A stretch of DNA of 64,000 nt from a candidate division WWE3 bacterium RIFOXYC1_FULL_40_10 (lineage in GTDB: Bacteria; Patescibacteriota; WWE3; UBA101185; UBA10185): assembly GCA_001773215.1 (NCBI GenBank), contig MEWB01000001.1, positions 806,099-870,098 of the forward strand, read 5' to 3'. The notes beneath the pieces were generated by a model. That model did no database searches. It was given only the letters and a program-made list of their open reading frames with translations, and was not told the DNA's origin. Each line of letters starts with the position of its first letter. Position 1 is the first letter of the stretch. Shown here in pieces: positions 1,711 to 32,300 of this stretch. A program made the position numbers and the translations under genes.

Positions 1711-1738
1711 AATAGCCGCTGTTCCTTAAGATATTATA

Positions 1739-2092
1739 ATGCTAGAAAAGAAATTTATAGCAGATAATCTGCAGAAAACATATTGTTACAAATGCGGAGC
1801 CAGCTTAGCCGGGGCTAAACTTGTAAAGATTACGGAAGCCACGGTTACACTAGTTGCACACGCTGTGTGCCCCGCCTGCAGTGCCGAGAGCATGGTAACT
1901 ATCACTCCTGCGGGAAGCGGGGTTACTCCGGTTATCTCGGATCTTACAGGAGAGGAATATGCTAAATTCATTGATGCAAACATCATTGGATACGATGACG
2001 TGTTAAATTTATATAAAGCTTTAAAGAAGGAGTCCCTATGGAACTTATTGCACACAAAAGAGAAAAAACAGGTAAAAAAACAAAAAATCTAA
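1739..2092 (+). CDS. Small zinc-ribbon protein (two CxxC pairs), hypothetical
   Basis: ORF with CYKCG...CPAC motifs; no clear SD; overlaps rplY start by 55 nt. Confidence 0.35.
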   Translation: MLEKKFIADNLQKTYCYKCGASLAGAKLVKITEATVTLVAHAVCPACSAESMVTITPAGSGVTPVISDLTGEEYAKFIDANIIGYDDVLNLYKALKKESLWNLLHTKEKKQVKKQKI

Positions 2093-2727: not shown

Positions 2728-2890
2728 CTAATGCCGCAAATATCTCTATAGGTTGCTATTACTATCAATTTTTGATATACTCACGATGTAAAAATAACAG
2801 ATGGGAGAGGTGTATCTGTTACATTTTTTCATGATTTTTGCACTTTAAATATATAGTTCAAACAATAAAGTCAGCAGATCTGGAGGATCT

Positions 2891-7642: not shown

Positions 7643-7716
7643 AAAAAAACTCCCGCACCAGGCGAGAGACTGTTCATTCAAACACGAGTGCTTTTATAGT
7701 AGGATTATATCACAAC

Positions 7717-8739: not shown

Positions 8740-8748
8740 ATTATCCAC

Positions 8749-10008
8749 ATGAGATACTCACAATTAATTGGCCGAACACAAAAAGAAGCTCCAAAAGATG
8801 AAGTTAGCAATAATGCAAGGCTGTTAACACGAGCCGGTTACATCCACAAAGAAATGGCAGGGGTTTACGCCTTTTTACCTTTGGGGTTTAGAGTTTTAAC
8901 CAAATTAATTCATATAATTAGAGAAGAAATGGTAGCTATAGGCGGGCAGGAGGTAAACTTAGGATCTCTTCAAATCCCTGAGTTATGGCAAAAAACCGGA
9001 AGGTGGGACGACAGCGTGATCGATGTTTGGTTCAAAACACACCTGCATAGCGGCACAGAAATAGGCTTGGCAACAACACACGAGGAGCCCCTATCTCAAA
9101 TAATGACTCAGTTCATAAGCTCCTACAAAGACTTACCTTTATACGCATTTCAATTTCAGCTGAAGTTTAGAAATGAGCTTAGATCAAAAAGCGGATTGCT
9201 AAGAACCCGCGAGTTTATCATGAAGGATTTATATTCCTTTTGTAAGAATGAAAAGGAATTAGATGAATTCTACGAAAAAGCACTGCATGCCTACCACAGA
9301 ATATTCGAGAGAGCCGGAATAGGAAAATCGACATATTTAACCTTCGCCAGCGGGGGAGCTTTTAGTAAATATAGCCATGAGTTTCAAACAGTATGCGATG
9401 CTGGGGAAGATACGGTCTATCTAAACGAAACTAAAAAAATAGCCATTAATAAAGAAGTATACAACGCTGAGGTGTTAAACGAGCTTGGAATGGCAAAGGA
9501 TGACTTTAAAGAATGCAAAGCTATTGAAGTAGGAAATATATTTAAACTAGGAACCAAGTATTCCATACCTCTTAATCTCTATTACTCCGATTCGGAAGGA
9601 AATAAACAGCCGGTAGTAATGGGAAGCTACGGCATAGGCCCCGGCAGATTGTTAGCAACTATCGTGGAAACCCACCACGATGAGAACGGAATAATTTGGC
9701 CGAAAAACCTGGCGCCGCATAAGATTCACCTGATAGGGCTAAATTTAGAAGACGAAAATACCAAAAAACGGGTGGCGTTTATCTACGAAAAGTTTGAAAC
9801 CTCGGGCTTCGACGTTTTGTTTGATGATAGAGAAGATATTACGGCAGGCCAAAAGTTTGCCGATGCAGATTTGATAGGGATTCCTTTTAGAGTCACCGTA
9901 TCAAAAAGAACAGGAGATAAACTGGAATTAAAGCTGAGAAACAGCGAGACTACGGAGCTTATGGATTTAGACACTTTGACTTCGAAAATGGTTTTGGAAC
10001 ACGTATAA
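8749..10008 (+). CDS. proS: Proline--tRNA ligase, short form without insertion/editing domain
   Basis: MRYSQLIGRTQKEAP...LLTRAGYIHKEMAGVYAFLPLG is the class II ProRS N-terminus; length 419 aa. Confidence 0.85.
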   Translation: MRYSQLIGRTQKEAPKDEVSNNARLLTRAGYIHKEMAGVYAFLPLGFRVLTKLIHIIREEMVAIGGQEVNLGSLQIPELWQKTGRWDDSVIDVWFKTHLHSGTEIGLATTHEEPLSQIMTQFISSYKDLPLYAFQFQLKFRNELRSKSGLLRTREFIMKDLYSFCKNEKELDEFYEKALHAYHRIFERAGIGKSTYLTFASGGAFSKYSHEFQTVCDAGEDTVYLNETKKIAINKEVYNAEVLNELGMAKDDFKECKAIEVGNIFKLGTKYSIPLNLYYSDSEGNKQPVVMGSYGIGPGRLLATIVETHHDENGIIWPKNLAPHKIHLIGLNLEDENTKKRVAFIYEKFETSGFDVLFDDREDITAGQKFADADLIGIPFRVTVSKRTGDKLELKLRNSETTELMDLDTLTSKMVLEHV

Positions 10009-10069: not shown

Positions 10070-10423
10070 TTAGCTTCCTTCTCCCCCACCATATTGTGAT
10101 AAAGGATCGACATTGCCGAAAATATTAACGAATATTCTTCGGATAGCGAATACCAAGAACAAGCCAACTCCGCCAATGGCGGCATAGGTAACCCACTGTT
10201 GTGCTTTATCTATTGCCTGCTTGTCTCCTCTAGAGACAACGTATTGCAAAAAACCGAGTGCCAACATAACTACCACAACACCAAGACCCGCAATCATTAT
10301 CAAGTTGGTAATCCAGGTAAATAATTGGTCTAAGTTTCCTATATCAGCAGCAGGATCAATAGGCTCTGAGGGTATAGTTTGAGCATACACCGGAGTCAAA
10401 ATTTTATTTAATAAGTCCATCAT
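10070..10423 (-). CDS. Pilin-like small two-helix membrane protein (TrbC/VirB2-like topology); paralog of 20506..20847
   Basis: Long leader, then two hydrophobic helices separated by SRGDKQAIDKAQ; shared pattern GL..A.AF.QY..S.GD..A.D.AQ..VT...IRRI with the 20.5-kb gene. Confidence 0.4.
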   Translation of the reverse strand: MMDLLNKILTPVYAQTIPSEPIDPAADIGNLDQLFTWITNLIMIAGLGVVVVMLALGFLQYVVSRGDKQAIDKAQQWVTYAAIGGVGLFLVFAIRRIFVNIFGNVDPLSQYGGGEGS

Positions 10424-10862: not shown

Positions 10863-12647
10863 ATGAAAATTCGTACAACACTAATTATCTCTCTCATGTT
10901 TCTTTTTGGTGCAATAACGCCAACTTACGTTTTGGCAGATGACGAATGTAAGAAAATCGAGGATTTAGATAAGCGCGCCGAGTGTTACGAAGCAAAAATA
11001 GACAAAAAGGAAAGTGAATACAATTCAACTACAAAACAACTGGACGAGATTAGAACGCAAAAAGATAGTATTAATCAAAAAATTCAGGCACTTTCGTCGG
11101 AGCTCAATGTAACTCAGGGACAAATAGACGAAATCGACTCCGAGGTAGATGCCGTTCAGGCCGAATTGGAGATTATCAACGGCAAGATTTTGGATCGCCA
11201 GCAAAAACTGGGAGATAAAATAAATTTAAGAAACCGTATCATAAGAAGCTATTTTATAAAAAGAGTCGAAAGTGAAATTACCCTGTTTTTAATGAATAAC
11301 GGTTTTGAAAATGCCTCGTTTAACTACGCTTTTAGCAAGGCCGCAAATAATGAGACAAAGAAACTAATAGAAGGTTTAAATTTTGAAATAAGCAATTTCG
11401 AAGCCGATAAGGCTGAATCTCTGGAACTTAAGAATGACTTGGAAAATAGTTTAGCAAGCCTGGCCAAGTTAAGAGCTGATTTAGCCACTAAAAAGAACCA
11501 ACAACAAGAAGAATTTAAGGAAACTGTAGCAGACGAGACTAAAACAATTAATAAATTATCAAATCTCCAAAATGAAATTGACGAATTATCGGCTAAACAA
11601 CAGGATATCTTGAAACAAAAGTATGGGGATGAGTATGGATCAGTGGGAGATTTTGAATCTCCAACAGCTTCAACACCAAGCCCACCCTTTAAACCTGCAT
11701 TTGCGGCATTCAGTTACGGTGCGTATACACACTACAAAGGCATGAGCCAATACGGAGCTAAAGGACGAGCTGACAAAGGAGATGACTACAAGGAAATTTT
11801 GAAATTCTACTATAAAGTGGATGCTAAGGAAAAAGACGACTTTCCCAGCAAATTGTGTGTTGAAGGATACGGTGACCTAAGCTTCTCCAAATACCTCTAC
11901 GGCATAGCCGAAATGCCAAGCGACTGGCCAGATGAGGCCTTAAAGGCCCAGGCTATAGCGGCTCGTTCTTATGCGTACCGTTACTACAAAGCCGGAAAGT
12001 GTATTTGTACAACTCAAAGCTGCCAAGTTTATTCCAAGAGCAAAAGCGACAACCCACCTTCAAAATGGAAAAGCGCTGTTGACGATACTGAAGGTATCAT
12101 TTTGGACAACGACATAGTTGCCTATTATTCATCAACAACCGGTGGCTACATTGATAATGTGGGATGGGATACGGAATGCGGTAGCTCTTCTTGTTGGCCA
12201 AGCAAAGCCTATGAAAAGAGTTCTCCCTGGTTTTACAAGGCATGGTATACAAAAAGCTATAACAACAGTGACTCCTGTGGAAGAGGGCACCCTTGGCTTT
12301 CGGAAAAAGAAATGGCGGATATTTTAAATGCGTATGTGGTTTGGAACAAAGGCAACAATAGTGATAGAGACCACATTTCTCCTGTAACAACAAATTGTTG
12401 GGGGGGAGATCCCTACTCACTTGATGAGATGGCCGATAAGGCTGGGGATTATGGAACCAAATACACTAAAGTAACTTCAATAGATGTTGAAGTAAGTAAC
12501 GGGGGATACACTTCAAATGTTACTTTAAGAACCGATAATGGAACTGTTTCAGTTAACGGCGAGACATTTAAAACTGTTTTTAACTTAAGAGCTCCCGGAT
12601 ATTTATCAATAAAAAGCAAGCTTTTCGACATGGAAAAACGCGAATAA
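10863..12647 (+). CDS. Secreted coiled-coil protein with C-terminal SpoIID/LytB-type peptidoglycan-remodelling domain
   Basis: Signal peptide; ~250-aa coiled-coil; KYLYGIAEMPSDWPDEALKAQAIAARSYAYRYY ... SSTTGGYIDNVGW matches the SpoIID/LytB domain signature. Confidence 0.65.
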   Translation: MKIRTTLIISLMFLFGAITPTYVLADDECKKIEDLDKRAECYEAKIDKKESEYNSTTKQLDEIRTQKDSINQKIQALSSELNVTQGQIDEIDSEVDAVQAELEIINGKILDRQQKLGDKINLRNRIIRSYFIKRVESEITLFLMNNGFENASFNYAFSKAANNETKKLIEGLNFEISNFEADKAESLELKNDLENSLASLAKLRADLATKKNQQQEEFKETVADETKTINKLSNLQNEIDELSAKQQDILKQKYGDEYGSVGDFESPTASTPSPPFKPAFAAFSYGAYTHYKGMSQYGAKGRADKGDDYKEILKFYYKVDAKEKDDFPSKLCVEGYGDLSFSKYLYGIAEMPSDWPDEALKAQAIAARSYAYRYYKAGKCICTTQSCQVYSKSKSDNPPSKWKSAVDDTEGIILDNDIVAYYSSTTGGYIDNVGWDTECGSSSCWPSKAYEKSSPWFYKAWYTKSYNNSDSCGRGHPWLSEKEMADILNAYVVWNKGNNSDRDHISPVTTNCWGGDPYSLDEMADKAGDYGTKYTKVTSIDVEVSNGGYTSNVTLRTDNGTVSVNGETFKTVFNLRAPGYLSIKSKLFDMEKRE

Positions 12648-14946: not shown

Positions 14947-16146
14947 ATGTTTTATACAACACTCGCTTTAGCTAAATTAACAACACTGATAAGTAAACTA
15001 TTAAATATAGGGGCAGGATCCACATGGCCCGGACATGTTGCTCTTAGAGTTTATCCAAATCTATTTAGAGATAGCCATTTTAGGTTTAATAAAGGGTTAA
15101 TACTTATCACAGGTACCAACGGTAAAACCACTACAGCCAAGCTCTTATCTATGTCCTTAAGGAATTTGGGCAACTTTGTTGTCACAAACAGCAGTGGTGC
15201 AAATTTGCTAAACGGCATTGCCTCTGCTTTTTTATTGCAGTTTAGCTTAACAAAGAAATTTGATTATGGAGTGTTTGAGGTTGACGAGGCTGCGTTTCCA
15301 AAACTTTTAGAACAGACCAGCCCTAATGTGGTTTTTTTGCTTAATATCTCTAGGGATCAGCTGGATCGCCATTGGGAACCGGATTTAGTTTTTGAAAGGT
15401 GGGTAACTGCCTTAAAGAATACCACTCCCCTACCCTATATAATTGCTGATTCTGAGGAGCCAAAATTTGGTTTGATGGCAACTCTACTAGATGAAGATAA
15501 AATAACATTCTTTGATAAAGATTCCCCTCTTAAACTACGTTCTCATAAGGTGTTTTATAACGATAAAGATTTAGGCTCTAGCAATTTGGCCGGTGAATTT
15601 AACCGCAAAAATCTTAATGCCGCCGCAAAAGCGATGGCTTTGCTTGGTTTTAGTTATAAAGACGTTGTTGCTTCACTAAAAGACTTCAGTTTCGCTTATG
15701 GAAGAGGGGAAAAAATTGAGTTTAAGGGCAAGGATTTTAGGATTTTATTGGCCAAAAACCCAAAAAGCTTTAATACTAACCTGGATGATTTGCTAGATCC
15801 TTCGGGGGATGCGATCCAAGCCTTCCCTGAAGCATTACTGTTTATTTTAAACGATAACATCCCTGATGGGAGAGATATCTCATGGATTTACGATATAAAT
15901 CCTATAAAACTTAAAGAAGTATGTAAGGATAAGGCAGTTTTCGTTGCAGGCACTAGATGCTTTGACATGGCGGTAAGACTGCAATATGCCGGTGTTTTTA
16001 TTGACAAAGCCAATGTAGATAAAGAAATAGCCGAAGTATTAAAGCGACTAGCTTCAAAAACGGAACTAAAGAATGTTACGGTATTACCAAATTATTCTTC
16101 TATGCTTGCTTTTAGGAAGTTAGTTTTGGGACGAAGTATTTTATGA
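14947..16146 (+). CDS. murT: Lipid II isoglutaminyl synthase, Mur-ligase-like subunit MurT
   Basis: ITGTNGKTTTAKLL P-loop of the Mur ligase family; MurT-like N-terminus; ATGA overlap with the downstream GatD-like gene. Confidence 0.7.
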   Translation: MFYTTLALAKLTTLISKLLNIGAGSTWPGHVALRVYPNLFRDSHFRFNKGLILITGTNGKTTTAKLLSMSLRNLGNFVVTNSSGANLLNGIASAFLLQFSLTKKFDYGVFEVDEAAFPKLLEQTSPNVVFLLNISRDQLDRHWEPDLVFERWVTALKNTTPLPYIIADSEEPKFGLMATLLDEDKITFFDKDSPLKLRSHKVFYNDKDLGSSNLAGEFNRKNLNAAAKAMALLGFSYKDVVASLKDFSFAYGRGEKIEFKGKDFRILLAKNPKSFNTNLDDLLDPSGDAIQAFPEALLFILNDNIPDGRDISWIYDINPIKLKEVCKDKAVFVAGTRCFDMAVRLQYAGVFIDKANVDKEIAEVLKRLASKTELKNVTVLPNYSSMLAFRKLVLGRSIL

Positions 16147-16892
16147 GTACTACTAAATTAACAATTGGATACTTATACAAGGAAGAAATGAATTTGTACG
16201 GAGATAATGGAAATATAGAAGTAATGCTAGACAGAGCTCGGAGAAGAGGGATTCAAACCGAGGTTATTGTGATTGATACAACAACAAATCCAAATGACCC
16301 TAGCTTGAAAGGAGTGAATTTTATGTTTATGGGGGGAGGTTCTGATTATTCTCAACGGGAAACTTACCAGGACTTTATAACTAACAAAAAGCAATTGTTA
16401 CAAAGCTATGTGGAAGAAGGAAAGACAGGATTATATATTTGCGGCGCTTATCAACTAATGGGCAATTATTACAAATCTGCAGACGGCTCTGTGTTAAAAG
16501 GATTGGAAATTTTTGATATTTACACTCAGCATTTTGGGTATTCTAAACAAAGGTGTACAGGGAACGTTTTAGCCGAACTTACAAATAGTGCTATTAAGGG
16601 TCCCACTTCTGTTGTAGGTTTTGAGAATCATGGTGGTAGAACTTACCTTGGTACCGGTTGTAAGCCTTTTGCCACATTAAAGTTTGGGTTTGGCAACAAT
16701 GGCGAAGATAATACTGAGGGCTTGCTATACAAAAACAGCTTGTGCACTTATCTTCATGGACCTCTTGTAGCCCGTAATCCACACATAGCCGATTATTTAT
16801 TAGCCAAAGCCCTAAATGTTGATAAACTGGAACAATTGGATGACTCTCTTATATACGATGCCCACACTGCCTCAACAAAATTGAAGCAATGA
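16143..16892 (+). CDS. gatD: Lipid II isoglutaminyl synthase glutaminase subunit GatD (CobQ-type glutamine amidotransferase)
   Basis: CobB/CobQ-like GATase motifs (GGGSDYSQ, ICGAYQLMG, HGG); always paired with murT. Confidence 0.7.
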   Translation: MSTTKLTIGYLYKEEMNLYGDNGNIEVMLDRARRRGIQTEVIVIDTTTNPNDPSLKGVNFMFMGGGSDYSQRETYQDFITNKKQLLQSYVEEGKTGLYICGAYQLMGNYYKSADGSVLKGLEIFDIYTQHFGYSKQRCTGNVLAELTNSAIKGPTSVVGFENHGGRTYLGTGCKPFATLKFGFGNNGEDNTEGLLYKNSLCTYLHGPLVARNPHIADYLLAKALNVDKLEQLDDSLIYDAHTASTKLKQ

Positions 16893-20505: not shown

Positions 20506-20847
20506 ATGAACCAACCTTCTGGTCCTTTTGATATGCTTAAAGACGTTGTCGGAGAATCGGAAATACCCGCGCCCGGTCATATTACTTCAGTTTGGGATAT
20601 CGCCGCGGCAATCGCAAATTTTATGACTCTTATGGCTGCCGGATTGGCAATCGCCGGATTGGCTTATGCCTTTGTACAGTATGCGACCAGTCAGGGAGAT
20701 CCTAAAGCTGTGGATAGGGCTCAAAAGGCTGTTACAGGGTCTGTGGTGGCCTTCGTTGTCACTTTTTTGCTGTGGTCTATCCGAAGAATAATAATTGGTA
20801 CCTTAACGCAAGAAGGAGTATATATCGGAAATGATCCGGGGATTTAA
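20506..20847 (+). CDS. Pilin-like small two-helix membrane protein (TrbC/VirB2-like topology) with ~35-aa leader
   Basis: Two hydrophobic helices separated by ATSQGDPKAVDRAQKAVTG; paralog of 10070..10423. Confidence 0.4.
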   Translation: MNQPSGPFDMLKDVVGESEIPAPGHITSVWDIAAAIANFMTLMAAGLAIAGLAYAFVQYATSQGDPKAVDRAQKAVTGSVVAFVVTFLLWSIRRIIIGTLTQEGVYIGNDPGI

Positions 20848-20848
20848 T

Positions 20849-21301
20849 ATGAAGAACATAATAACTTTTTTAGTAACCATAGCTTTTATTTCAACCCTAA
20901 CGGGTTCGTATGCTCAGGCAACTTGGAGAGATTATTGTGAGTTGGAAGCAACTTCCCAAGACCCTCCTCCAGAGGCTATTATATGCCCGATAGGTAAACT
21001 TCTTACTATTGGAGTATATGCTGTGGGGGCAGTTTTTGTAGCTGTTATGGCTTTTGGCGCTTGGAAAATGTCGATGGCTTTGGGAGATGCCCGTGCTTTG
21101 GAGGGGGCTAAGATGACCTGGACTTATGCAGTAATGGGCCTTTTTATTGTATTGGCCTTTTTTGGGTCTTTTTCTATGATATCAGGCATGCTTGGAATTC
21201 GAAGTGATACCTTTATTGCCACTCCGGAAGCTTTGGTAGATAAAATGGCAGAAGGCTTGTCTAATCTTCTGGAAGTAGCTCAAGTAACAACCACTCCGTA
21301 A
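20849..21301 (+). CDS. Pilin-like two-helix membrane protein with signal peptide; paralog of 10471..10794
   Basis: Start refined to MKNIITFLVTIAFISTL (signal peptide) directly after the upstream stop; two helices separated by ALGDARALEGAK. Confidence 0.4.
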   Translation: MKNIITFLVTIAFISTLTGSYAQATWRDYCELEATSQDPPPEAIICPIGKLLTIGVYAVGAVFVAVMAFGAWKMSMALGDARALEGAKMTWTYAVMGLFIVLAFFGSFSMISGMLGIRSDTFIATPEALVDKMAEGLSNLLEVAQVTTTP

Positions 21302-21309
21302 GTCTAAAT

Positions 21310-21765
21310 TTATTTATAAAGTCCTCCCTCAAGAAATTCGGTTTCAATCGTGGGCATAATATCGATTTTATTTACACTAATTTCGTAGCTTTTAGTTTTG
21401 GTTAAGGTCACTTTATATGTGTTTTTTCCTACAGGCACGTATTCGGGAGCCACATAAACTACAATTGTTGAGTTTCTATCGATCCTACTGCTAAATTTTA
21501 GAGGGGGCTCTATTGAGACACTTATGTCCTCGTCTTCGATATCTCTGTCTAAATAAAATTTCAAAATGAGAGCGGCTCCCCTATCAAGTTCTATATCTTC
21601 TAATATTTCAGGAGAGGTCTTTAGTACAACAGGGTCTCTTATATTTACCTGTTTATAATTTGGTGTGATGTTTTCTCCTCCAGGGTTTATAAGATTCCAA
21701 AAGTACCAAAATCCCCCGATGATTGCTGTCAATATTATTAGTCTTAATATATTTTTTTTATCCAT
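21310..21765 (-). CDS. Bitopic membrane protein: N-terminal TM helix plus ~110-aa beta-rich extracytoplasmic domain (VirB8-like topology, speculative)
   Basis: Start refined to MDKKNILRLIILTAIIGGFWYFW with AGGTAGGAAG SD; 5 nt downstream of the giant gene stop. Confidence 0.45.
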   Translation of the reverse strand: MDKKNILRLIILTAIIGGFWYFWNLINPGGENITPNYKQVNIRDPVVLKTSPEILEDIELDRGAALILKFYLDRDIEDEDISVSIEPPLKFSSRIDRNSTIVVYVAPEYVPVGKNTYKVTLTKTKSYEISVNKIDIMPTIETEFLEGGLYK

Positions 21766-21770
21766 ACTTC

Positions 21771-24700
21771 CTACCTTGATGGAGCGATGCAAACGTGTGA
21801 TTCAGGAACCACTTGATCTCCGTCTATTGTTAATTCTACATGAACATGGTCGTATATGGCGCCTGTGGGGTAGGGTGAAAGTACTGTACCTATTTGGTCC
21901 CCAGGTGAAAATGATCCTGATGGACATGAAACCAAATGGGATACCCCCATCTCATATTTTCCTTCATCACCGTCTCCTATAAAACCCGCCATAACACCGG
22001 CAGAGGCGCCTTTATACGTTAAATTCCAACATCTTGACGAATCCCATGTTGTTACGCCCCCAATAGAAGGCGCAATTGCTGTGTAGTCGGATGTGTTAGG
22101 GTGTACATCTACAGCATATCCCCAACCATCTCCAAGAGGGCTTTGATCAGAGCACCAGTTATTAGAGTTATAAGGGCCTTTAATTTTATCCGGCCACTGT
22201 GGTATAGAGTAGGAGCATTCGTAATTACATGAATCCCTGTCAACATGACCGCACCAATAATCATTTGATCCATGGGCGTACATATCTGCCTCATTTCCGG
22301 CATAGGAGTGTCCCCATCCGGCTCTAGTGTAATGCTCTAAAACGCAGGGGTAATCTCCGGTTTCTTCTTCCGCAGGGCAAACCGGATTTCCTGAATCATC
22401 TTGATCACATGCATCTCCTTTTTCAGTGTTCGGGCAACATTGGTCATTGCAGCAAATGCCTTCGCAGTCCTCTTCGCAGGAACCTTCCTCCGGAGGCTCA
22501 GCCACCTTACAGACCTTGTCAGGTGCACATGTGGCCTCCTCATCGCAGCATATTGGGTTGCTGGCACAGCTTTGTCCCGTTGGAATACACTTTTCTTTCA
22601 TTGGAGGATAAATGCTAAAAGTAGCGTGAGCTTCTCCTTGTACACTCGGTATTGGGGGGTCTTCCGATGTTCCCGGAATATCTATTGTGGCAGTCGCTAC
22701 TATTCTGGAATTCATTTTTCCTAGCGCTTTTTTTCCATTGTTTGCCGGCATTTTAATTGGCGTCTCCGAATTGGTTGCAAATGCCGACGTGCTAATGCCT
22801 CCTCCGTCTGTATACACAACGCTTACATCGCCATTCAGATCTATCTGTTCTACAACCAAAGTGTATCCTGCGGAACCCTTTATTCGGGTTAAATCGATTT
22901 TTGGTTCAACGACTAACTCATACCTAGCCTCAGTTCCCTCACTTGTATATGGTTCGGGGGGGTTAGTAATATCCACGCCGTTATGGGTTACTATCACGTC
23001 TAGTCGAACATCAGCTACTTGTGTGATTGAGCCGGTAGCTGCATCGAGTACGGAAGAGTCGGAGTTTGAGGCTAGTTGTTTGTTTGCATCCGCATACCGT
23101 ATTTCGTTAATTAAGACACCTTCTTGGTCTTCCGCTAAATTAGAAAACCATTTAGTAGGATCAAGCGGTGACAGTGCTGACCCTATAATAGTTTGAAGAA
23201 GAATCACAAACAACGCCATTGGAGCCATAATTAAAAGAGTTATATACGAAAGGGTTTTAATTATTTGTTGAATTTGTTTATCTACTGCTCTGAAAGCTTT
23301 TGTGAGGTCGCCTGTAGCGATACCCGAAATCAAATCCTTGCCAAACACAAGAGTTTTCTTAAAAAGTATTCGCAGGATCGGAACTAAAAATTTTTCTACC
23401 AGCGGAGCTAAAAAGGCCCCAATACCCCCGGTTAAAGCCCCCAATCCAAACTTTAACCCAAGCTTAAGCAAAAGCTTACTCAGCATGTTCTTAATTGCAG
23501 TTGATAATCCTCTAAATGCGGCACCGAAAACCTTGGTTAGACCCTCGAAACCCAATTCCTGTAAGCGGTCCTGCCACCCGGGGATCATCATTAGCCACTT
23601 TCCTATCGCGTACCTTTTCCCCCCAATTACTACGCCAAAATTTTTTATAGCCGTTTGAACCTGGTTAAGTTTTGACCAAACTCTCTGAAGGTGTCCTATA
23701 TATTTTGTTGTTATTTTGAAGGTATCCGGATTGGCATTCTCCCTTTTTAAGGCATAATAGAGAGCAAGCATAAAACCTTCGCTATCTAAATCCGCACCAT
23801 TAAACTTATTTAAGCCCCGTAAATAATCCTTAAATTCTTTCAGTTGCTTGTCAAAATATGCGCCGTCTTCAGCTGATAGTTTTATTCCCAAAGCTTGAAA
23901 TATAGCCAAGCGGGTAGCATTGTCTGAAAACTTGGCTTTTTCTGCCAACAAAGACGCCAAAAGCTTTGGATCCAAGTGCATCAAGTCCCCCATTAAGTGT
24001 GTAGCATTAGATGTTCTCGCAGCATCTCCGCTTCCGACGACAAATTCGAAAATTTTATCTCCAAGCATTCCGTTCGCGGTGATATTTACGCCATTTACAA
24101 GCCTTAAAGCTTCTTGCCTATTCTTTTCAAGTTTTGCATAAATTGTAGAGTTTAATCTTTTTAGGTAATCTTCTTCCGATTCGTTTTTTAGCTTTTCTAA
24201 TACCAACTTTGATCTTACGCGTTTATAATATTCGGCATCCTCTTCCCATCGCCACTCTTTTGTCAACGGATCCTTTACCCTGACCTTAGCCAAGGTTCCC
24301 TTTGCGGCCTTATTTCGGTAACTTAAATTTATTCCATGCGATAAATCCGCGTTTCCCAGCTTAACATCGAATTTGTACTGGTGCCCAGAGCCCAAATTAT
24401 CAGTGTTTTCCCTTTCGTCTACTATCAGGCCAAAATAGTGAGTTCTTTTAAGGGTTCTATCAATTATTGTTCCTGTAGTGACCTTGTCGACCCATGGTTT
24501 AAGAACTTTATTGTATAGATGTCTCTGTACCAGTTTTCCCTCGGCCAAATCGTCTATTAACTGTTCACAATCGCGCTGTATACGCTCTGTTTGCTCTCCC
24601 CTAAGTAAAGCCATAACCTTTTTGGATCTGGTTCCATCGGCTTCTTGCAAAATATCCGCCATTCCTCTCGCACCCCTTTTTGAGTAAATTAGGCCGTTTT

Positions 24701-26348
24701 CTATTCTTAAGTCAAACTCTCTTTTTAGATTAGGCCCCAAGAATTCATCCCCGCCTTCAAGTTTTCTTCCGCGGTAGGTTACGTTATCGATCAAAGCGTG
24801 TTGAACTCTCGCTGCGCTTCTTACATCGGCGCCTTTTATGGAAGCCCCAATGTCTTGGTATACTCCTGTTACTTTCTTTTTGTTGTCCGAAACTATACTT
24901 CCGGCAGAATCCCTCTCTACAAACCGGGTTAAGTTACTTCTTACACCATCTACTTTTTTGTCTAGTTTCTCAACATATCCTTCCAGATTTGACAAGTAAC
25001 CATTATGCTTATTGGTTACAGCCCTTAGTTCGGCTATTCTGGCTCTCACATCGGCTGTTCTTTCTTGGACTTGTTCCAGAGTTCCCGATCCGCATCTCAA
25101 AATCTTATCCCCCTCTATCTTGACGCCAATTTCCTGATCGGTGACAGTTGCCCACTTTGTAGGATCGGGTGCTCTCCCCTCAGCTTTAGCTTTATTAAGT
25201 TCTGCTTTTTGTTTCTCCCCTAATACTCGTATTCTGATGTTTTCAATATTCTGCAGTGTTTTGTCTCTAAGCTCATCCGACATTACTTCATCAGGATTCA
25301 CAATCCAGTCGTTTTTGGTTTTTAGTAAGTTTGCGATGGGAGCGGAGGCGTCTGCTTGGCTATAGATACCCAAAAATCCCTTTTGTAGTCCATGTTCCCC
25401 TCTTGCCTCTTCAAGAGCGGCCAGGGATTTTGATAGTGCCAATTCTTTTTGAAATACGGCAAATTGAGTTTGATCATGGGCACTTGAACCTGCTAATACA
25501 CTCGAGAGTTCTTGTTCTATAGCGTCAAAAGAAGCTACTCTAACTTTGTCCTGTGCCATTCCTCTGGTAAATTTTACTTTCTCAAAGGCTTCAAGATTTA
25601 TCATCTTGGCGGCCACATCTCCAAAGGCGGCATCCAGTTCCAAATCCCTGCTTCTTTGGATCGGATCACTGGACTTTCCCAAATACAAAGGGTTAGCTGT
25701 TCCGGCAGGTTCTCCAAGAGCCCTGCCTCCCTTCGAGCGGGCTTCCGCGATTGCTCTTTCAATTCCAGACATCGAGTGCTCTTTGCCTTCGTCATCTACC
25801 CAAGAAACGTATTCGTTTTTTAGTAGGGTTTCTTCCCACGCATCCTTGCTGTATTTGGTGGCAAAATCTCCAAAGTTGCTTTTAGCTAAATCTTTCACAT
25901 CCACACCTGTTCCTGCTTTCACCCAGTCGTTAAGGGTGTTCTTTACCTGAGTCTTGAAATTTTCACTAACAGTTCCTTTGCCGGAAACCCAGTCCAGTGG
26001 ATTTAACGAAAGGTTCACACCAAATGCTCCCGGAAGTTCACCGTAGTCATAATCGTAGAATTCACCAATATCCGAATTTACAGGTTTAATAGTTGCTTTG
26101 AGTTTGTTTTTAAAGTCATTAATTATTTCATCCCTAATCTGCCCGGGAAGTCCCTCTATGTCAAAAGCCATATCATCTATTGCTTGTGTAAAATCTGCAA
26201 AAGGGTACTCGATAGGTTTTACATAATCTCTGGGTTGAAACGGTTTTGGTTCTTTTTCTCCTTGGTAATAACCGGGGTAAAAGGGACTCATACCGGTTTT
26301 ATCGGCGGGTTCCGGTATATATCCTGCATAAAAGGGGTTTACTGCCAT
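21771..26348 (-). CDS. Giant 1,525-aa membrane protein: ~1,000-aa N-terminal coiled-coil-rich cytoplasmic region, TM cluster, extracellular Cys-rich module and C-terminal M23/LytM-like peptidase domain
   Basis: No signal peptide; hydrophobic helices about 1,000-1,100 aa in; Cys-rich CCDEEATC...SCEEDCEGICCNDQCC; C-terminal GYAVDV...GVSHL...GDQIGTVLSPYPTGAIYDHVHVEL resembles the M23 HxxxD/HxH region. Confidence 0.55.
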   Translation of the reverse strand: MAVNPFYAGYIPEPADKTGMSPFYPGYYQGEKEPKPFQPRDYVKPIEYPFADFTQAIDDMAFDIEGLPGQIRDEIINDFKNKLKATIKPVNSDIGEFYDYDYGELPGAFGVNLSLNPLDWVSGKGTVSENFKTQVKNTLNDWVKAGTGVDVKDLAKSNFGDFATKYSKDAWEETLLKNEYVSWVDDEGKEHSMSGIERAIAEARSKGGRALGEPAGTANPLYLGKSSDPIQRSRDLELDAAFGDVAAKMINLEAFEKVKFTRGMAQDKVRVASFDAIEQELSSVLAGSSAHDQTQFAVFQKELALSKSLAALEEARGEHGLQKGFLGIYSQADASAPIANLLKTKNDWIVNPDEVMSDELRDKTLQNIENIRIRVLGEKQKAELNKAKAEGRAPDPTKWATVTDQEIGVKIEGDKILRCGSGTLEQVQERTADVRARIAELRAVTNKHNGYLSNLEGYVEKLDKKVDGVRSNLTRFVERDSAGSIVSDNKKKVTGVYQDIGASIKGADVRSAARVQHALIDNVTYRGRKLEGGDEFLGPNLKREFDLRIENGLIYSKRGARGMADILQEADGTRSKKVMALLRGEQTERIQRDCEQLIDDLAEGKLVQRHLYNKVLKPWVDKVTTGTIIDRTLKRTHYFGLIVDERENTDNLGSGHQYKFDVKLGNADLSHGINLSYRNKAAKGTLAKVRVKDPLTKEWRWEEDAEYYKRVRSKLVLEKLKNESEEDYLKRLNSTIYAKLEKNRQEALRLVNGVNITANGMLGDKIFEFVVGSGDAARTSNATHLMGDLMHLDPKLLASLLAEKAKFSDNATRLAIFQALGIKLSAEDGAYFDKQLKEFKDYLRGLNKFNGADLDSEGFMLALYYALKRENANPDTFKITTKYIGHLQRVWSKLNQVQTAIKNFGVVIGGKRYAIGKWLMMIPGWQDRLQELGFEGLTKVFGAAFRGLSTAIKNMLSKLLLKLGLKFGLGALTGGIGAFLAPLVEKFLVPILRILFKKTLVFGKDLISGIATGDLTKAFRAVDKQIQQIIKTLSYITLLIMAPMALFVILLQTIIGSALSPLDPTKWFSNLAEDQEGVLINEIRYADANKQLASNSDSSVLDAATGSITQVADVRLDVIVTHNGVDITNPPEPYTSEGTEARYELVVEPKIDLTRIKGSAGYTLVVEQIDLNGDVSVVYTDGGGISTSAFATNSETPIKMPANNGKKALGKMNSRIVATATIDIPGTSEDPPIPSVQGEAHATFSIYPPMKEKCIPTGQSCASNPICCDEEATCAPDKVCKVAEPPEEGSCEEDCEGICCNDQCCPNTEKGDACDQDDSGNPVCPAEEETGDYPCVLEHYTRAGWGHSYAGNEADMYAHGSNDYWCGHVDRDSCNYECSYSIPQWPDKIKGPYNSNNWCSDQSPLGDGWGYAVDVHPNTSDYTAIAPSIGGVTTWDSSRCWNLTYKGASAGVMAGFIGDGDEGKYEMGVSHLVSCPSGSFSPGDQIGTVLSPYPTGAIYDHVHVELTIDGDQVVPESHVCIAPSR

Positions 26349-27737: not shown

Positions 27738-30700
27738 TTATTTACAAGCGTTTAGTATCTCGCTTATTTTGCCCCCTGCTGCGTAAACAGCATAATCCGG
27801 GTTGCCGCTATTGTATTCACCCTCAAGGTATACCGGCCAATAATTAAGTGATTTCATGGCTCCTGCCGTTATTTCCCAAGAACCGGGACCCATTCCCATC
27901 CAACTATCGTAATTGCAGGTGTTAGGTGCATCTCCCATCACCTGCTCACTAGCGTATCTTTCTGCAAAGTTTCTGATACCTGCCGCTGTAACATATGCAG
28001 AGTCTAGGAAGTTGCATCTGTGTGCCGTTTCTCCTCTTCCCATAGAAACCGTGTTTAATGCATCATAGGCTGTTCCGAAGGTATTTCCGGGGTCATTGCG
28101 CGTTTTAATATTTTCAAAGGCAGGCCCTGTTAGATAAAAAGGACCTTGTTCATTATAGTTTAGATCGTTACAGTAATAAGTTTTTCCGTTGCGTGTTTTC
28201 ACGTATTTGTCTAAGCTCGACCACCAGGGAGTTGTTCCAACCTGAATCGAGCTTAAACTCCAAATCAGATTTTGCTCTTCTCTACTGATATTGCTGGCAA
28301 GGCTGATACGGCTTTCCGGTTTTGATATGTCTCCCTGTTTCCAGTAGTCCGCAAAGTCGTTCAACCCTCCGGTTATCTTCATCTGTGCCAATAACAGCGA
28401 TGCAGGAACCTGGAAAGCGTTTGCTGCCCCTTGAAGAACTTTTACAAAAGTTGGGGAAAACGTGTAGGTAGCAGGATCTACACCTAATGCCGTTTTGCAG
28501 GCTGCTGTGTTTAAAGCTGAAAGTCCACATCCCGGAACGAGTTTGTCCAGATCAGCCTCTGCAGGATTAGGGACATCTTTAAGTGAGCAATCCCATCCAT
28601 AATCAAGAGTGTTGGTAGAACAAACATTTGGAGTAGGATATTCGATATCAGGTGCGTATCTTCCGTCTGTCGCGTATTCCTGCATTTCCTGGTATTTAAC
28701 TCCTGATCCGGGGGCCTTATCCTTTTCAACACCAATTGGTGTAGTTCTCTGCTCTGTTCCTGCTACATCTTCCGCGGTAGACATTGCAGGTATATTAAAT
28801 CCCCCTGCAACCATAGTTACGTCGATGGGCATACAATAACTTGGGTCGTCACTCACCGGGCAGTACTCACCTACTTCTCCAATAGATCTCGGGTTTTTCA
28901 ATGCCAGGTACTCGGCTCCAAGCATGGACTCTGTGTAAGGGTAGTCATCCGGTTCTTCTTCTGTCTCTGTAGCGTCCGATGCCTGCTCATTTTCTGCATT
29001 TTGTCTTTGTGGCACAATATCCATAGTAGCCATCATTTCGGCCGAGCCATCACACTCTTTAAATTTGCCCTGTGCCCCAAACGGCCCTGCTACTTGAACG
29101 GTGCAATAAACTTCATCTGATACATACCAGGCGTTAGGACACTGATACTGTTTCCCGGGTTCCGAGTTACCGTTCTTATCTTCGCACTCGCCTGTTGCAC
29201 AGCATTCATTTGTCCCTGCCAAGCAGTTTTGCGGCGAGGGGGTATCACCTTTACAGGTGCTGGCGCATATATTGCCGGGATCTCCACTTCCGCAGCCACT
29301 TTCACAGCAAACACTCACGTTTTCGTTACCCTCACCATTTACCGGACAACACGTGTGATCACATTCCTTATCGCAACTTTTTCCCTCCGGAGCTTTATCT
29401 ATTAGAGTTGTTTTTTGTTTCCAGGCACAATACACCCATTCGAATTTATTGCAGCTGCTTTCGTTTACACCGTCCCCTGGCTTTTTACAGTCAACCGGTC
29501 TGCAAGTCCTGCTTATAGGTACATTGGGTCCCATTTTCTCTCCATTGATTGTAACTTCTCTTCCTATGTTTATGTCCTCCGTGAAAGGCAGTTTTTTATC
29601 ATCCTCATCAGAGCCCGCGTCCTCATCCCCGCAGTATTCATTCATTGGTATTACCGTCCCAAACTTTTCTGCCACTTTTGAGCTATGGTCTTCTCCTCTA
29701 GGTTTGTTGCTGTTATCTCCGAGCCCATTTCCCCAAGGATAACAGTAATTTTCTCCCCAAGGGGATACGACCCTATCATCTTTAATTTGTGTTTTAAAGG
29801 TAGAGTCATTGGCGGGTAACGGAAAGAATTTAGCAAAACTTTCCTCAGTTACAGCTTCATAAACACTTCCCCCATCCTCAGTTTCTATGTGATTGTAGTT
29901 GACAATAAAGTTATCCATTGGTTCAGGACGTAACTCAGCAATTGTCCCGCCTCTGTCGAAGAAGTTCTTGTATTTGGCTGTTTTACCTTGTAACAAAAGG
30001 AGAAACTGTTCAATAACGGTAAATCCGCTTACCTTTATTTCTCCACTACCTGCAGAAGCATTCATTACTGCATCATACAGATGCGTTCCTGCGCTTTTAG
30101 CCTTTTCTAGTAAGTCCCCATCCAGTTCAAGAAGCTTTTCAGATCTATTAATTGCTGCGGTGGTGTATCTGATATCCGAGGTTCCCATCGAGGCGGGGTC
30201 AGTTGGAGGTGCAGGGGTATTCGCTTGAGGATTTTGCAAATAGTGATGTTCGTCCAGTTGTACTACACCTGTTTCATCATCTATATATTCATTTGATCTA
30301 TAAAATTCCAATTCGTTATCCTTACTTATAATTATCGAATTAATCTTATCCTTTAAATTGTTAGCATTAGAAAGCATGCAGTAGGTTTGAATTTCGCCTC
30401 CAAACTTAACCAGGGGATAATCTTCTCTATATAGTAAGTCTGTGAATGCGGGGTCGTCTTTTACACCAAAGCCCATGGTGGTGGTGTCGGTAAACTTGGG
30501 ATCTATCGGATAGCTTTCCTGGGATACAGTAAGCCCTTCTGCGTCGGAGATATCTTTTATATTTGATGAAATTTGTGCCCCAAAAGTTACCGAGCCCTTT
30601 CCTTCTTCTGGGTTTGAAGCGGGGTCGTTTTTGTAGCCACCAAAAACAATAGCATTGCCGCTTTTTAAGGGATCTTGGCTTTCCATTAGGGCACCTAGCG

Positions 30701-32300
30701 GATCGCTCTTTGATGGATCTGCGGGGTTTGCTTGATAAGAAGACCCTACAATGCCGTAGGTGCTGGATGAAAGTGCGGTGCCTGCCTTGGCGCTGTAATA
30801 CATTAGCATTTCAGGGCTCCAATAGTCGCTTCCCAAAGAGCACTCGCCGCCGCCGCAATCCGGATCCCACGGTTTTTTAATTTGGCTAATTTTCACTTCT
30901 TCGTCAGTATCAGGCTTAACGCAAATCACAGGGTCATACCCGGTTTCAACGTAATATTTATCCCAAATATCTTCAAAAGTGTTATAGCTGCTTAAGGACA
31001 CCCCGGGTCCTGTTGTAGTCATTTCGCTTCGATATTCTTCAGTGTCCTTTGTGGGGTCAGGAAGGTCCTCCGGATTAACTCCGTAATTTATTCCAAAAGG
31101 ATCAGTGCACTTTTTGTATGTTTCACAACTTATTCTTGGGAAAGTGTCGGGATCTAGGAACTTTCTTATCTTTATTCCCAAGCCCTCATTTTCCTGTAAA
31201 CACATTCCAAAATGTGTTTGATTAAAGGCATAAGTAGCATTTGGATTTTGGGCATATCCAACCAATTCTAATCTAAAAGTCATTTCCCGTGGAAATAGCA
31301 TAACCGCCTTAGCAGGTAATGCCGGGTAGAATGACTCAATTACATAAGGTTTCGCCTTATTTTCACCTTCTATGCCTCTAGTGTAAGTGTCCAGCTCGTA
31401 TTTATCAGGGTCGCCGGTATCACACATGTTTTTCCACCAAATATCTTGACTTCGCCTGTCATATGTTAATGTTTTGCAGTCTTTTGACCAAAAGGAACCC
31501 TGATGGACAGATCCGGAGTTTGCTGCCCCCGCTATTACACTTGGCACTTTAGCAAAAATGTCCTCATAGTTATTTGGCGTAAACCTTTGGTCAGCCCTTT
31601 TTACGCCGCCTACAAAAGTGGTCTCTATTACTGTTTGATTCTTTTTAGCTTCTGATATTTCAACTGTAGACGGCACCTTTCCGGTTCCTTGGTTTCCCAT
31701 GTCGCAGTTAATATGAACGTTACCCTTTAGGTCCATTATGCGAAATATTGATGGGGCAGGAGGAGGTGTGGCTGGGTCCCGGACAGCTATATCATTCGGG
31801 CATCTGGAGTAAATACTAAGATACGGATAGCTTTGAGTGGAATCCAAGCGGATGATGTCATCTAAATCATAAGTGCCGTCTTCCCGCTCGCAAGCCGTAA
31901 CTAAGTATCTAATTTGCTGGCCGCCGACTACTCTCATTGGGCAGTAAAAATAACCGTCTTCGTTCGAATAAGTAGAACAATAAGGGTGAATGATGTTGCC
32001 GTCTAGCTTACATGTAGGCGAGGAAGGATCACATTCGTATATAAACACAGATACGTTTGGGACACCCTTATGTGACATTTGCATATTCCCTGACGCGGCA
32101 GACATAGCCTCGTCTTCTTCAAAAGCTTCTTCAGGATCGTGGCTTCGAATAATCCCGCATACAGAATTTTCATTTCCATTTGCCGGTTTAGGGCACCTTG
32201 AGCCTTCAATAAATTGGGAATCGTACATATTTTCGGCTAGGGTTTGTGTTCCAAACGCAAACAACAGGAATAATGTAACTAAAACCGCTTTATATTTCAT
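27738..32300 (-). CDS. Giant 1,520-aa secreted Cys-rich protein (signal peptide, no TM) with a C-terminal globular domain of uncertain type, possibly lysozyme/transglycosylase-like
   Basis: Signal peptide MKYKAVLVTLFLLFAFGTQTLA; central module SCDKECDHTCCPVNGEGNENVSVCCESGCG homologous to the module in the 1,525-aa neighbour; C-terminal 'VPASLLLAQMKITGGLN' weakly SLT-like but lacks the catalytic Glu. Confidence 0.5.
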   Translation of the reverse strand: MKYKAVLVTLFLLFAFGTQTLAENMYDSQFIEGSRCPKPANGNENSVCGIIRSHDPEEAFEEDEAMSAASGNMQMSHKGVPNVSVFIYECDPSSPTCKLDGNIIHPYCSTYSNEDGYFYCPMRVVGGQQIRYLVTACEREDGTYDLDDIIRLDSTQSYPYLSIYSRCPNDIAVRDPATPPPAPSIFRIMDLKGNVHINCDMGNQGTGKVPSTVEISEAKKNQTVIETTFVGGVKRADQRFTPNNYEDIFAKVPSVIAGAANSGSVHQGSFWSKDCKTLTYDRRSQDIWWKNMCDTGDPDKYELDTYTRGIEGENKAKPYVIESFYPALPAKAVMLFPREMTFRLELVGYAQNPNATYAFNQTHFGMCLQENEGLGIKIRKFLDPDTFPRISCETYKKCTDPFGINYGVNPEDLPDPTKDTEEYRSEMTTTGPGVSLSSYNTFEDIWDKYYVETGYDPVICVKPDTDEEVKISQIKKPWDPDCGGGECSLGSDYWSPEMLMYYSAKAGTALSSSTYGIVGSSYQANPADPSKSDPLGALMESQDPLKSGNAIVFGGYKNDPASNPEEGKGSVTFGAQISSNIKDISDAEGLTVSQESYPIDPKFTDTTTMGFGVKDDPAFTDLLYREDYPLVKFGGEIQTYCMLSNANNLKDKINSIIISKDNELEFYRSNEYIDDETGVVQLDEHHYLQNPQANTPAPPTDPASMGTSDIRYTTAAINRSEKLLELDGDLLEKAKSAGTHLYDAVMNASAGSGEIKVSGFTVIEQFLLLLQGKTAKYKNFFDRGGTIAELRPEPMDNFIVNYNHIETEDGGSVYEAVTEESFAKFFPLPANDSTFKTQIKDDRVVSPWGENYCYPWGNGLGDNSNKPRGEDHSSKVAEKFGTVIPMNEYCGDEDAGSDEDDKKLPFTEDINIGREVTINGEKMGPNVPISRTCRPVDCKKPGDGVNESSCNKFEWVYCAWKQKTTLIDKAPEGKSCDKECDHTCCPVNGEGNENVSVCCESGCGSGDPGNICASTCKGDTPSPQNCLAGTNECCATGECEDKNGNSEPGKQYQCPNAWYVSDEVYCTVQVAGPFGAQGKFKECDGSAEMMATMDIVPQRQNAENEQASDATETEEEPDDYPYTESMLGAEYLALKNPRSIGEVGEYCPVSDDPSYCMPIDVTMVAGGFNIPAMSTAEDVAGTEQRTTPIGVEKDKAPGSGVKYQEMQEYATDGRYAPDIEYPTPNVCSTNTLDYGWDCSLKDVPNPAEADLDKLVPGCGLSALNTAACKTALGVDPATYTFSPTFVKVLQGAANAFQVPASLLLAQMKITGGLNDFADYWKQGDISKPESRISLASNISREEQNLIWSLSSIQVGTTPWWSSLDKYVKTRNGKTYYCNDLNYNEQGPFYLTGPAFENIKTRNDPGNTFGTAYDALNTVSMGRGETAHRCNFLDSAYVTAAGIRNFAERYASEQVMGDAPNTCNYDSWMGMGPGSWEITAGAMKSLNYWPVYLEGEYNSGNPDYAVYAAGGKISEILNACK

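Follow-up and report, generated by a model that had tools for sequence, protein, structure and literature searches.

In conjugation of Gram-positive bacteria, type IV secretion systems (T4SS) work with membrane-anchored, VirB1-like cell wall hydrolases. One of these, PrgK of plasmid pCF10, has an N-terminal domain inside the cell, a transmembrane helix at residues 254-274 and extracellular LytM, MUR and CHAP domains; the LytM domain is degenerate (PMC11323569). The same plan is general to the VirB1-like hydrolases of Gram-positive systems (PMC12857230). A gene of similar design is found in a 64,000-nucleotide stretch of the genome of candidate division WWE3 bacterium RIFOXYC1_FULL_40_10, a member of the Patescibacteria (contig MEWB01000001.1); the whole stretch is referred to as the window. 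The gene encodes a protein of 1,525 residues which is identical to the NCBI entry 'hypothetical protein A3K34_04510' of the same bacterium. It is probably a membrane-anchored peptidoglycan endopeptidase associated with a T4SS or its pilus, that is, a VirB1 analogue of the PrgK type with a giant cytoplasmic scaffold.

Patescibacterial T4SS are derived from the Gram-positive mating-pair formation FATA type (MPF-FATA). They often lie near dnaA and include arrays of VirB2-like pilins; VirB1 and VirB6 homologues are rarely detectable (PMC12102498). VirB1 homologues proved scarce in a survey of the phylum, and other hydrolases have been suggested in that role (PMC12102498). Epibiotic growth of the saccharibacterium Southlakia epibionticum requires its T4SS cluster, SEML1_0006-0019 (Wang 2023). 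According to the available tables of that study, SEML1_0007 is a 1,113-aa 'hypothetical protein' encoded beside VirB4 (SEML1_0008), and it is essential by transposon sequencing. In Table S2, only residues 951-1105 are assigned, to a Hedgehog/DD-peptidase fold, and an 'M23 domain-containing protein' is listed among the fold neighbours of the full-length protein; the next gene in the tables is the lysozyme/CHAP protein SEML1_0006 (Wang 2023).

Comparison with known hydrolases

PrgK (Enterococcus pCF10, a DELTA-class VirB1-like T4SS hydrolase) and TraG (pIP501) are encoded with genes of an MPF-FATA-type T4SS, as is the WWE3 protein. The predicted layout of the WWE3 protein shares with PrgK an intracellular N-terminal domain, a single transmembrane helix and extracellular wall-hydrolase domains with a LytM/M23 fold among them. 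CHAP domains, present in PrgK and TraG, occur in relatives of the 1,525-aa protein. There are also clear differences. The intracellular part is about 250 residues long in PrgK and about 1,030 here. PrgK and VirB1 act through a glycosidase domain (SLT or muramidase); in PrgK the muramidase is active and LytM is degenerate, whereas the WWE3 protein has no glycosidase and conserves every M23 catalytic residue. Outside the M23 fold, no sequence similarity to PrgK or TraG was detected, and the gene is divergent from a VirB6-like gene rather than downstream of VirB4.

This kind of T4SS-associated wall hydrolase is already known from Gram-positive systems, and the protein is probably a novel form of it. 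A sequence-only reading of the same DNA had described an 'inverted topology'. Such a layout is indeed predicted, but it is the normal plan of PrgK and the Gram-positive T4SS hydrolases and is not exotic; the unusual feature is the size of the intracellular part (~1,030 residues). No concept is overturned: the architecture is an exaggerated PrgK, and it is not surprising given PrgK and SEML1_0007.

As far as the available tables describe it, SEML1_0007 likewise combines an unassigned N-terminal part of about 950 residues with a wall-peptidase head; the two N-terminal parts are alike by description only. Its head is of the Hedgehog/DD-peptidase (M15-like) kind, not M23, and in those tables its gene lies directly downstream of VirB4. 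Its M23-bearing fold neighbours suggest the same design with a swappable head.

Divergent M23 domain

Forty homologous C-terminal domains were aligned (alignment A3). Five catalytic positions, H1359, D1414, H1471, H1501 and H1503, are invariant; C1378, C1399, G1410, A1412, P1427 and W1435 are also invariant, and E1505 is nearly so. When the A3 profile was compared with PDB sequences, M23/LytM proteins made up the top seven matches and 12 of the top 20; the others were antibody-chain noise. Matches include ShyA (E 0.0037), NMB0315, LytU, LytM, SpoIIQ, TagE, zoocin A and DipM, and the aligned block reads xHL...G.IG...HxHxE..G..V.P. The motifs GVSHL and DHVHVEL, picked out as M23 motifs in the sequence-only reading, both align with the corresponding positions of ShyA, NMB0315 and LytM, and H1501-V-H1503 falls on the HLH of ShyA and NMB0315. 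The AlphaFold model of the domain has a predicted local distance difference test score (pLDDT) of 86.3 and a predicted template modelling score (pTM) of 0.86. In a Foldseek comparison of this model with the PDB, ranks 1-39 are all M23/LytM (best E 3.6e-4), with a probability of ~1.0 for nearly all; they include LasA, LytM, LysTt72, Csd1/Csd2, lysostaphin, DipM and ShyA. Profile, AlphaFold2 (AF2) model and Foldseek bear out the earlier assignment of an M23-like domain, although the HxxxD motif is missing.

Of the two His residues in HxH, the first is catalytic and the second a zinc ligand. Further M23 features are H(x)nD, from which the His and Asp zinc ligands come, and another His about 30 residues before HxH (PMC9662197). 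The accessory His lies 30 residues before HxH in LytM (His260) and LasA (His81), and a variable n in H(x)nD is an accepted trait of M23 peptidases, with n=3 canonically, n=7 in gp13 and n=12 in LasA (PMC9662197). H1471 lies exactly 30 residues before H1501. The LytM beta-sheet fold, HxH, accessory His and an Asp on the equivalent strand are all shared with LytM, lysostaphin and the M23A enzyme LasA. The first motif is different: the family has YG[YF]AxD without HxxxD, with an invariant G1410-x-A-x-D1414 which places Gly at the canonical His position. The sole invariant upstream His is H1359, in HGSNxYW, which gives n=54. The domain is called HGSN-type here.

Two locus-equivalent relatives help to explain this spacing. 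In loci L024 and L029 of distant Patescibacteria, the slot of the family gene is occupied by a smaller gene (648 or 804 aa) with a mid-protein transmembrane helix and a canonical M23 tail. These proteins have the contiguous motifs SHKIIDAID (L024) and SHGGYAAVD (L029). In a MAFFT alignment the His and Asp of both motifs fall in the H1359 and D1414 columns, and the HGSN-type domains have an insert of ~50 columns, with Cys residues, between these columns. Because of this alignment, the first M23 motif is read as split by a Cys-containing insertion of ~50 residues, with H1359 as the predicted zinc ligand. With all five catalytic positions conserved, the domain is probably active, unlike the degenerate LytM domain of PrgK, and would be a zinc-binding endopeptidase.

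By fold and catalytic residues the domain belongs with M23; by motif spacing and by its score, which is below the Pfam gathering score, it does not, and it is best called a borderline member of the Pfam family. It defines a divergent M23 sub-type, HGSNxYW...GxAxD...HxH, which is overlooked by current domain models. A BLASTP comparison of the domain with a lysostaphin sequence gave no significant alignment, and is not used as evidence either way.

Family members and exchangeable C-terminal domains

Searches of Pfam, PHROGs, NCBIfam and PDB sequences with the 1,525-aa protein gave nothing meaningful. Word-indexed protein searches with the whole protein, the C-terminal domain or the family alignment returned the protein itself or nothing. 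An exhaustive HMMER search with residues 326-1525 found 81 representatives at E<=1e-3 (22 at E<=1e-10). About 50 of the 81 are collinear over the whole length in a local full-length comparison, so the architecture is not due to chance. Conserved blocks are found at residues 1-210 (consensus MAxNPxxxxxYPGYYPG), 527-670 and 786-922 and in the transmembrane region; the tail is variable. Named cluster members are all annotated as 'hypothetical protein' and all come from WWE3/Katanobacteria. The HGSN-type domain family is found in metagenomic sequences only, and the related loci are almost all patescibacterial.

C-terminal types were counted in 65 non-identical family members. The N-terminal ~1,000 residues are kept, and the enzyme that follows is swapped: 28 members have an HGSN-type M23 domain, 19 a zincin-like module with HExxH, and eight a CHAP domain (some with a C39-like domain as well). 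CHAP, like M23, is a known type of cell wall peptidase. No type was recognised in the remaining ten, one of which (L029) has a canonical M23 tail by eye. In a neighbour-joining tree of the N-terminal parts, types are mostly distributed by clade, with at least five switches; this tree rests on sequences which are 20-25% identical and is indicative only, not robust. For example, the CHAP-type member L003 lies within a zincin clade, and the zincin-type L023 lies beside the M23-type P0054.

In a locus from Gottesmanbacteria (L025), the family slot holds a 978-aa protein without detectable homology to the family (E 0.3). Together, the proteins in this slot suggest a phylum-wide T4SS component made of an N-terminal domain plus a transmembrane helix, with a peptidase as an option.

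The 1,525-aa protein itself is a mosaic. Its beta-rich spacer (residues 1059-1245) is common to zincin- and CHAP-type members and missing from most M23-type members; profile searches of the PDB and searches of Pfam gave no match for it. The Cys-rich module noted in the sequence-only reading is confirmed at residues 1246-1335, and it is private to this protein within the family. The head is M23. Relatives have only ~30-40 residues between the transmembrane helix and the catalytic domain.

Membrane topology and the N-terminal domain

The N-terminus is not hydrophobic and there is no signal peptide, as had been noted from the sequence. The long, charged and helical N-terminal part was also recognised correctly: the first ~930 residues are charged, with a balance of 138 K/R to 137 D/E in residues 1-930, and are almost entirely helical in the AlphaFold model. 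The earlier placement of three or four transmembrane helices around residues 1000-1100 has to be revised. A hydrophobic cluster is present, but at residues ~940-1058, and hydropathy gives one strong helix (residues 1033-1058) while the rest is weakly hydrophobic. The Kyte-Doolittle value of this helix is 2.44, and the family mean is 2.36 (46 aligned relatives). Ahead of it lies an amphipathic stretch (residues 940-1000) which is basic, rich in Gly and only weakly hydrophobic. Residues 931-1032 may be either membrane-associated or a marginal helical hairpin; two relatives have weak Gly-zipper Pfam matches in the juxtamembrane region.

The isoelectric point (pI) is 10.3 before the transmembrane helix and 4.0-4.6 after it, in the ectodomain. 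Cys residues are distributed unevenly: two of the 24 are in residues 1-930 and 22 lie beyond residue 1245. Since there is one conserved transmembrane helix with a basic N-terminal side, an acidic C-terminal side and this 2-versus-22 Cys asymmetry, the predicted orientation is N-in/C-out.

The N-terminal domain is best conserved at residues 1-175, 600-650 and 876-900. Neither Walker A nor HExxH motifs were found in it, and the 1,525-aa protein has no NTPase or zincin motif. An AF2 model based on a 46-sequence alignment is all-helical and of moderate confidence (pLDDT 64, pTM 0.67). Foldseek found no neighbour of this model in the PDB (best E 0.15), and a profile of the domain gave only coiled-coil noise against PDB sequences. 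A match to a known enzyme family would have told against the layout first proposed; neither sequence nor fold comparison with the PDB gave one. The domain is conserved, and some family members have little or no ectodomain (e.g. P0012, L014, L015); these two facts point to a role as a scaffold or docking platform in the secretion machine, which is a conjecture.

Association with type IV secretion genes

Related loci were taken from the contigs of four relatives and from species-representative genomes (27 loci); the latter were gathered via the 442-aa protein encoded next to the gene. The gene order common to 27 genome loci and five metagenome loci is SpoIID, three to six pilins, an anchored protein of ~160 aa, the family gene, and a divergent homologue of the 442-aa protein. 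Two forms are found after this homologue: either a giant secreted protein, as in the window, or PrgI-TraC-like/TrsD-VirB4. In five loci (L001, L016, L022, L023 and L029), genes for PrgI (VirB3-like), TraC-like/TrsD and VirB4 follow directly. The suggestion of a 'conjugation VirB1-like hydrolase', made from sequence, was thus essentially right: the gene is part of a T4SS/pilin module which is contiguous with PrgI-TrsD-VirB4 in these five loci.

In the window, pilins were recognised by PF18895, by homology to annotated pilin arrays and by NF045849 (pilin-like conjugal transfer protein). The dnaA gene is 8 kb from the gene, and smpB is also in the flank. The position near dnaA and the pilin array match the published picture of Patescibacterial T4SS (PMC12102498). 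SpoIID adjoins the pilin array directly in most related loci. In the window, a third pilin and the SpoIID-domain gene stand apart; a block with dnaA, murT, gatD and tsaD, a Wzy-like gene and a gene for a solute-binding protein appears to interrupt the module. The murT/gatD pair (a Mur ligase with MurT_C and a GATase_3 protein) implies stem peptides with amidated iso-glutamine, as in Gram-positive peptidoglycan, and this bears on the question of what the M23 domain has as its substrate.

The 442-aa protein has no Pfam match. It is well conserved, with E values of 1e-50 to 1e-80 to its orthologues. Because orthologues in other loci lie directly upstream of PrgI-TrsD-VirB4, it is a predicted positional and topological analogue of VirB6/PrgH, and a candidate for the 'missing' VirB6 of these lineages.

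Nearly all loci have, downstream of the family gene, a gene for an anchored protein of 150-210 aa. In the window its ATG lies 5 nt past the stop codon of the large gene and has an AGGAAG-like Shine-Dalgarno sequence ahead of it; the two genes are translationally coupled, and the TTG start listed at 21792 is probably wrong. There is more than one partner family: one is common to M23- and zincin-type loci, and another to the two CHAP-type loci. The partner in the window has only a weak profile match to the main family (E~0.007; set of 21 sequences). One of the equivalent partners in other loci has a weak match to Big_5 (Ig-like).

Proposed function

In the proposed mechanism, the ~1,030 N-terminal residues would stay in the cytoplasm as a helical scaffold, and the single transmembrane helix would cross the membrane, making the protein bitopic. 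The acidic ectodomain, a spacer followed by a Cys-rich stalk, would carry a zinc endopeptidase of M23/LytM fold. This enzyme would cut the peptide cross-links of peptidoglycan beside the machine and thereby let channel and pilus through the wall; the role would be that of the membrane-anchored VirB1-like hydrolases (PrgK, TraG) in Gram-positive conjugation. Cutting of the glycan would fall to a different enzyme, possibly the SpoIID-like protein encoded in synteny. By means of its large N-terminal domain, the peptidase would dock to VirB4, VirB3 or the VirB6-like protein, in the cytoplasmic or membrane portion of the machine. The wall that is cut may be the cell's own or that of a host.

Several observations weigh against this mechanism. 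The 1,525-aa protein has no match to Pfam M23 (PF01551) even at E<=0.1, and its relatives score only 17-22 bits against a cut-off of 28.7 bits; sub-threshold matches fall exactly on the C-terminal domain in four of them (P0036, P0038, P0040 and P0045). No SLT, lysozyme or muramidase domain was matched in the protein, and of 47 relatives or proteins sharing a domain, only one has SLT. The lack of a glycosidase domain keeps the protein out of the VirB1/SLT families. A tblastn search of the window found no VirB4, TrsD or PrgI, and for this WWE3 genome the predicted link to the ATPase operon comes from orthology with other loci only. The docking role of the N-terminal domain is a conjecture, as the domain has no detectable similarity to any solved structure. 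Because ten of the 65 members are without a recognisable outer enzyme, the conserved function may reside in the N-terminal domain and not in wall hydrolysis; the positional counterpart in L025 likewise ends at its transmembrane helix, but has no detectable homology to the family.

Alternative explanations

The sequence-only reading likened the protein to a phage tail tape-measure protein, and a remnant of a prophage tail module with an M23 lysin may be added to this. Both are very improbable, and the tape-measure idea is effectively refuted. The long helical protein, internal hydrophobic segment and C-terminal M23 domain do recall some tape-measure proteins with a C-terminal lysin, but the likeness is one of superficial plan only. 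Tape-measure proteins also head the Foldseek matches of the N-terminal model in BFVD; these matches are insignificant, with a best E of 4e-3, a probability of <=0.23, a template modelling score (TM-score) of 0.07 and a root-mean-square deviation of 30-50 A. Such a TM-score and probability are the signature of 'any long helical protein', and the likeness was rejected as noise. Neither PHROG nor Pfam gave a tape-measure match for the 1,525-aa protein; five neighbours gave a single marginal match to PHROGs, of a pilin to an unannotated PHROG (E 0.077). IMG/VR holds no close relative. No phage genes were found among the scanned open reading frames of the window, so the earlier statement that no other phage genes flank the gene is true, but it overlooked the type IV secretion genes that do. 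The chromosomal setting beside T4SS genes is fixed in more than 30 loci, and the composition of the gene is not atypical. A general wall or division endopeptidase, unrelated to secretion and near pilins by chance close to the replication origin, is less far-fetched but still quite unlikely. This explanation likens the protein to membrane-anchored LytM factors or to machinery of the SpoIIQ/SpoIID type. It is consistent with SpoIIQ among the profile matches, SpoIID-like genes in the conserved neighbourhood, murT/gatD and other wall genes nearby in the window, and the lack of VirB4 there. However, the pairing with the VirB6-like gene and the pilin array is kept in all loci with a family member, despite rearrangement of everything else, and PrgI-TrsD-VirB4 adjoins the pair in five loci. 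In L024 and L029, which are more distant, this slot is taken by shorter proteins of the same plan, with an N-terminal region, transmembrane helix and canonical M23 domain.

A third explanation, unlikely but more plausible than the other two, is a weapon or 'drill' directed at the host, in which the outer peptidase attacks host or competitor peptidoglycan at contact; alternatively, the protein might be a polymorphic effector delivered by the T4SS, with a C-terminal head exchanged to match the wall chemistry of the target. The swapping of heads on a kept N-terminal part, with its at least five switches, speaks for it, although the tree, as noted, is not robust. A cultured patescibacterium needs its T4SS to grow as an epibiont, and bacteria-killing T4SS effectors with wall-hydrolase domains are reported from Xanthomonas. 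As in polymorphic toxins, a conserved N-terminal backbone is combined with four C-terminal states. A co-varying immunity gene was not found; only the CHAP pair differs, its two loci sharing a distinct small downstream protein despite distant N-terminal parts. For the M23 and zincin types, an immunity role of the downstream gene was rejected, since one anchored partner family serves both and is not head-specific. This argues that the small gene encodes a structural partner, and leaves room for cassette exchange of a head with its neighbour. The transmembrane helix, basic cytoplasmic flank and Cys-poor N-terminal domain of 1,030 residues indicate a resident membrane protein rather than a secreted one, and no known toxin-delivery domain was detected in the N-terminal part.

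A T4SS-associated hydrolase of the PrgK type would have some practical consequences. An unannotated family would fill the hydrolase slot in the WWE3 lineage, and the holder of this slot would be a large modular protein whose peptidase heads are interchangeable. This helps with the question of how Patescibacterial T4SS function and cross two cell walls, and the family offers concrete candidates for work on interaction, localisation and activity. A bolder idea, which is rather unlikely, is that the family is the missing 'wall-breaching head' of a Patescibacterial T4SS/pilus feeding apparatus: an arm of ~1,000 residues coupled to the VirB4 motor, with an exchangeable peptidase (M23-like, CHAP or zincin; DD-peptidase in Saccharibacteria) tuned to the peptidoglycan chemotype of the host. 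If true, head type would predict the host range of uncultured epibionts. The family may also give a marker which links epibiont genomes to host wall types.

Coordinates and neighbouring genes

The coordinates of all features are collected in Table 1.

Table 1. The 1,525-aa protein, its predicted catalytic residues and its gene neighbourhood; positions refer to the window, except in the rows for L024, L025 and L029, which refer to those loci.
Feature	Position	Strand	Basis or remark
Complete coding sequence, 1,525 aa + stop	21771..26348	minus	ATG start, uninterrupted open reading frame
aa 1-930, intracellular (predicted), almost all-helical	23559..26348	minus	family collinearity, conservation, AF2
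aa 931-1032, basic juxtamembrane region, pI 10.3	23253..23558	minus	hydropathy, family consensus ATGG
aa 1033-1058, predicted transmembrane helix LSYITLLIMAPMALFVILLQTIIGSA	23175..23252	minus	Kyte-Doolittle, charge and Cys asymmetry
aa 1059-1245, acidic beta-rich extracellular spacer (predicted)	22614..23174	minus	alignment A6, tail lengths
aa 1246-1335, acidic Cys-rich module, 15 Cys, pI 4.05	22344..22613	minus	composition, comparison with relatives
aa 1336-1525, divergent M23/LytM-fold metallopeptidase domain, 'HGSN-type'	21774..22343	minus	A3, profile, AF2, Foldseek
H1359, in HGSNxYW	22272-22274	minus	invariant, 40 homologues
D1414	22107-22109	minus	invariant, 40 homologues
H1471, in GVSHL	21936-21938	minus	invariant, 40 homologues
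H1501, in DHVHVEL	21846-21848	minus	invariant, 40 homologues
H1503, in DHVHVEL	21840-21842	minus	invariant, 40 homologues
VirB2-like pilin, 113 aa	20506-20847	plus	PF18895 T4SS_pilin, NF045849, homology to pilin arrays
VirB2-like pilin, 156 aa, overlaps 113-aa gene	20831-21301	plus	PF18895 T4SS_pilin, NF045849, homology to pilin arrays
Partner gene, ~151 aa, N-terminal membrane anchor, small extracellular domain	21310..21765	minus	
442-aa protein, signal peptide, ~6 transmembrane helices	26406..27734	plus	divergent, 57-nt spacer
1,520-aa secreted protein, signal peptide	27738..32300	minus	kept at position in WWE3 loci without adjacent VirB4 operon
Third VirB2-like pilin	10070-10423	minus	
SpoIID-domain protein beside third pilin	10863-12647	plus	
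murT/gatD pair	14947-16892	plus	Mur ligase with MurT_C, GATase_3 protein
L024 family-slot gene	7628-9574	minus	
L029 family-slot gene	1610-4024	minus	
L025 (Gottesmanbacteria) family-slot gene, 978 aa	3793-6729	minus	ends at transmembrane helix, no ectodomain

A scan for promoters and terminators gave counts at chance level and was not used.

The 1,520-aa secreted protein takes the slot held by PrgI-TrsD-VirB4 in other lineages, and 12 related loci have homologues of 1,260-1,350 aa in the corresponding place. The protein has no Pfam or PDB match, its C-terminus searched separately has none, and a Pfam search of seven homologues gave none. Possible roles are those of an adhesin or of some other extracellular component of the system. 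It also has an acidic Cys-rich insertion, at about 29060-29510 (residues ~930-1080). The sole match between the two giant proteins is of this insertion to the Cys-rich module of the 1,525-aa protein; it is compositional only (E 0.11), and paralogy of the two was rejected. Homologues of either protein in other genomes are without the Cys-rich insertion. The two insertions look like a lineage-specific stalk or metal-binding module which was gained twice in one locus.

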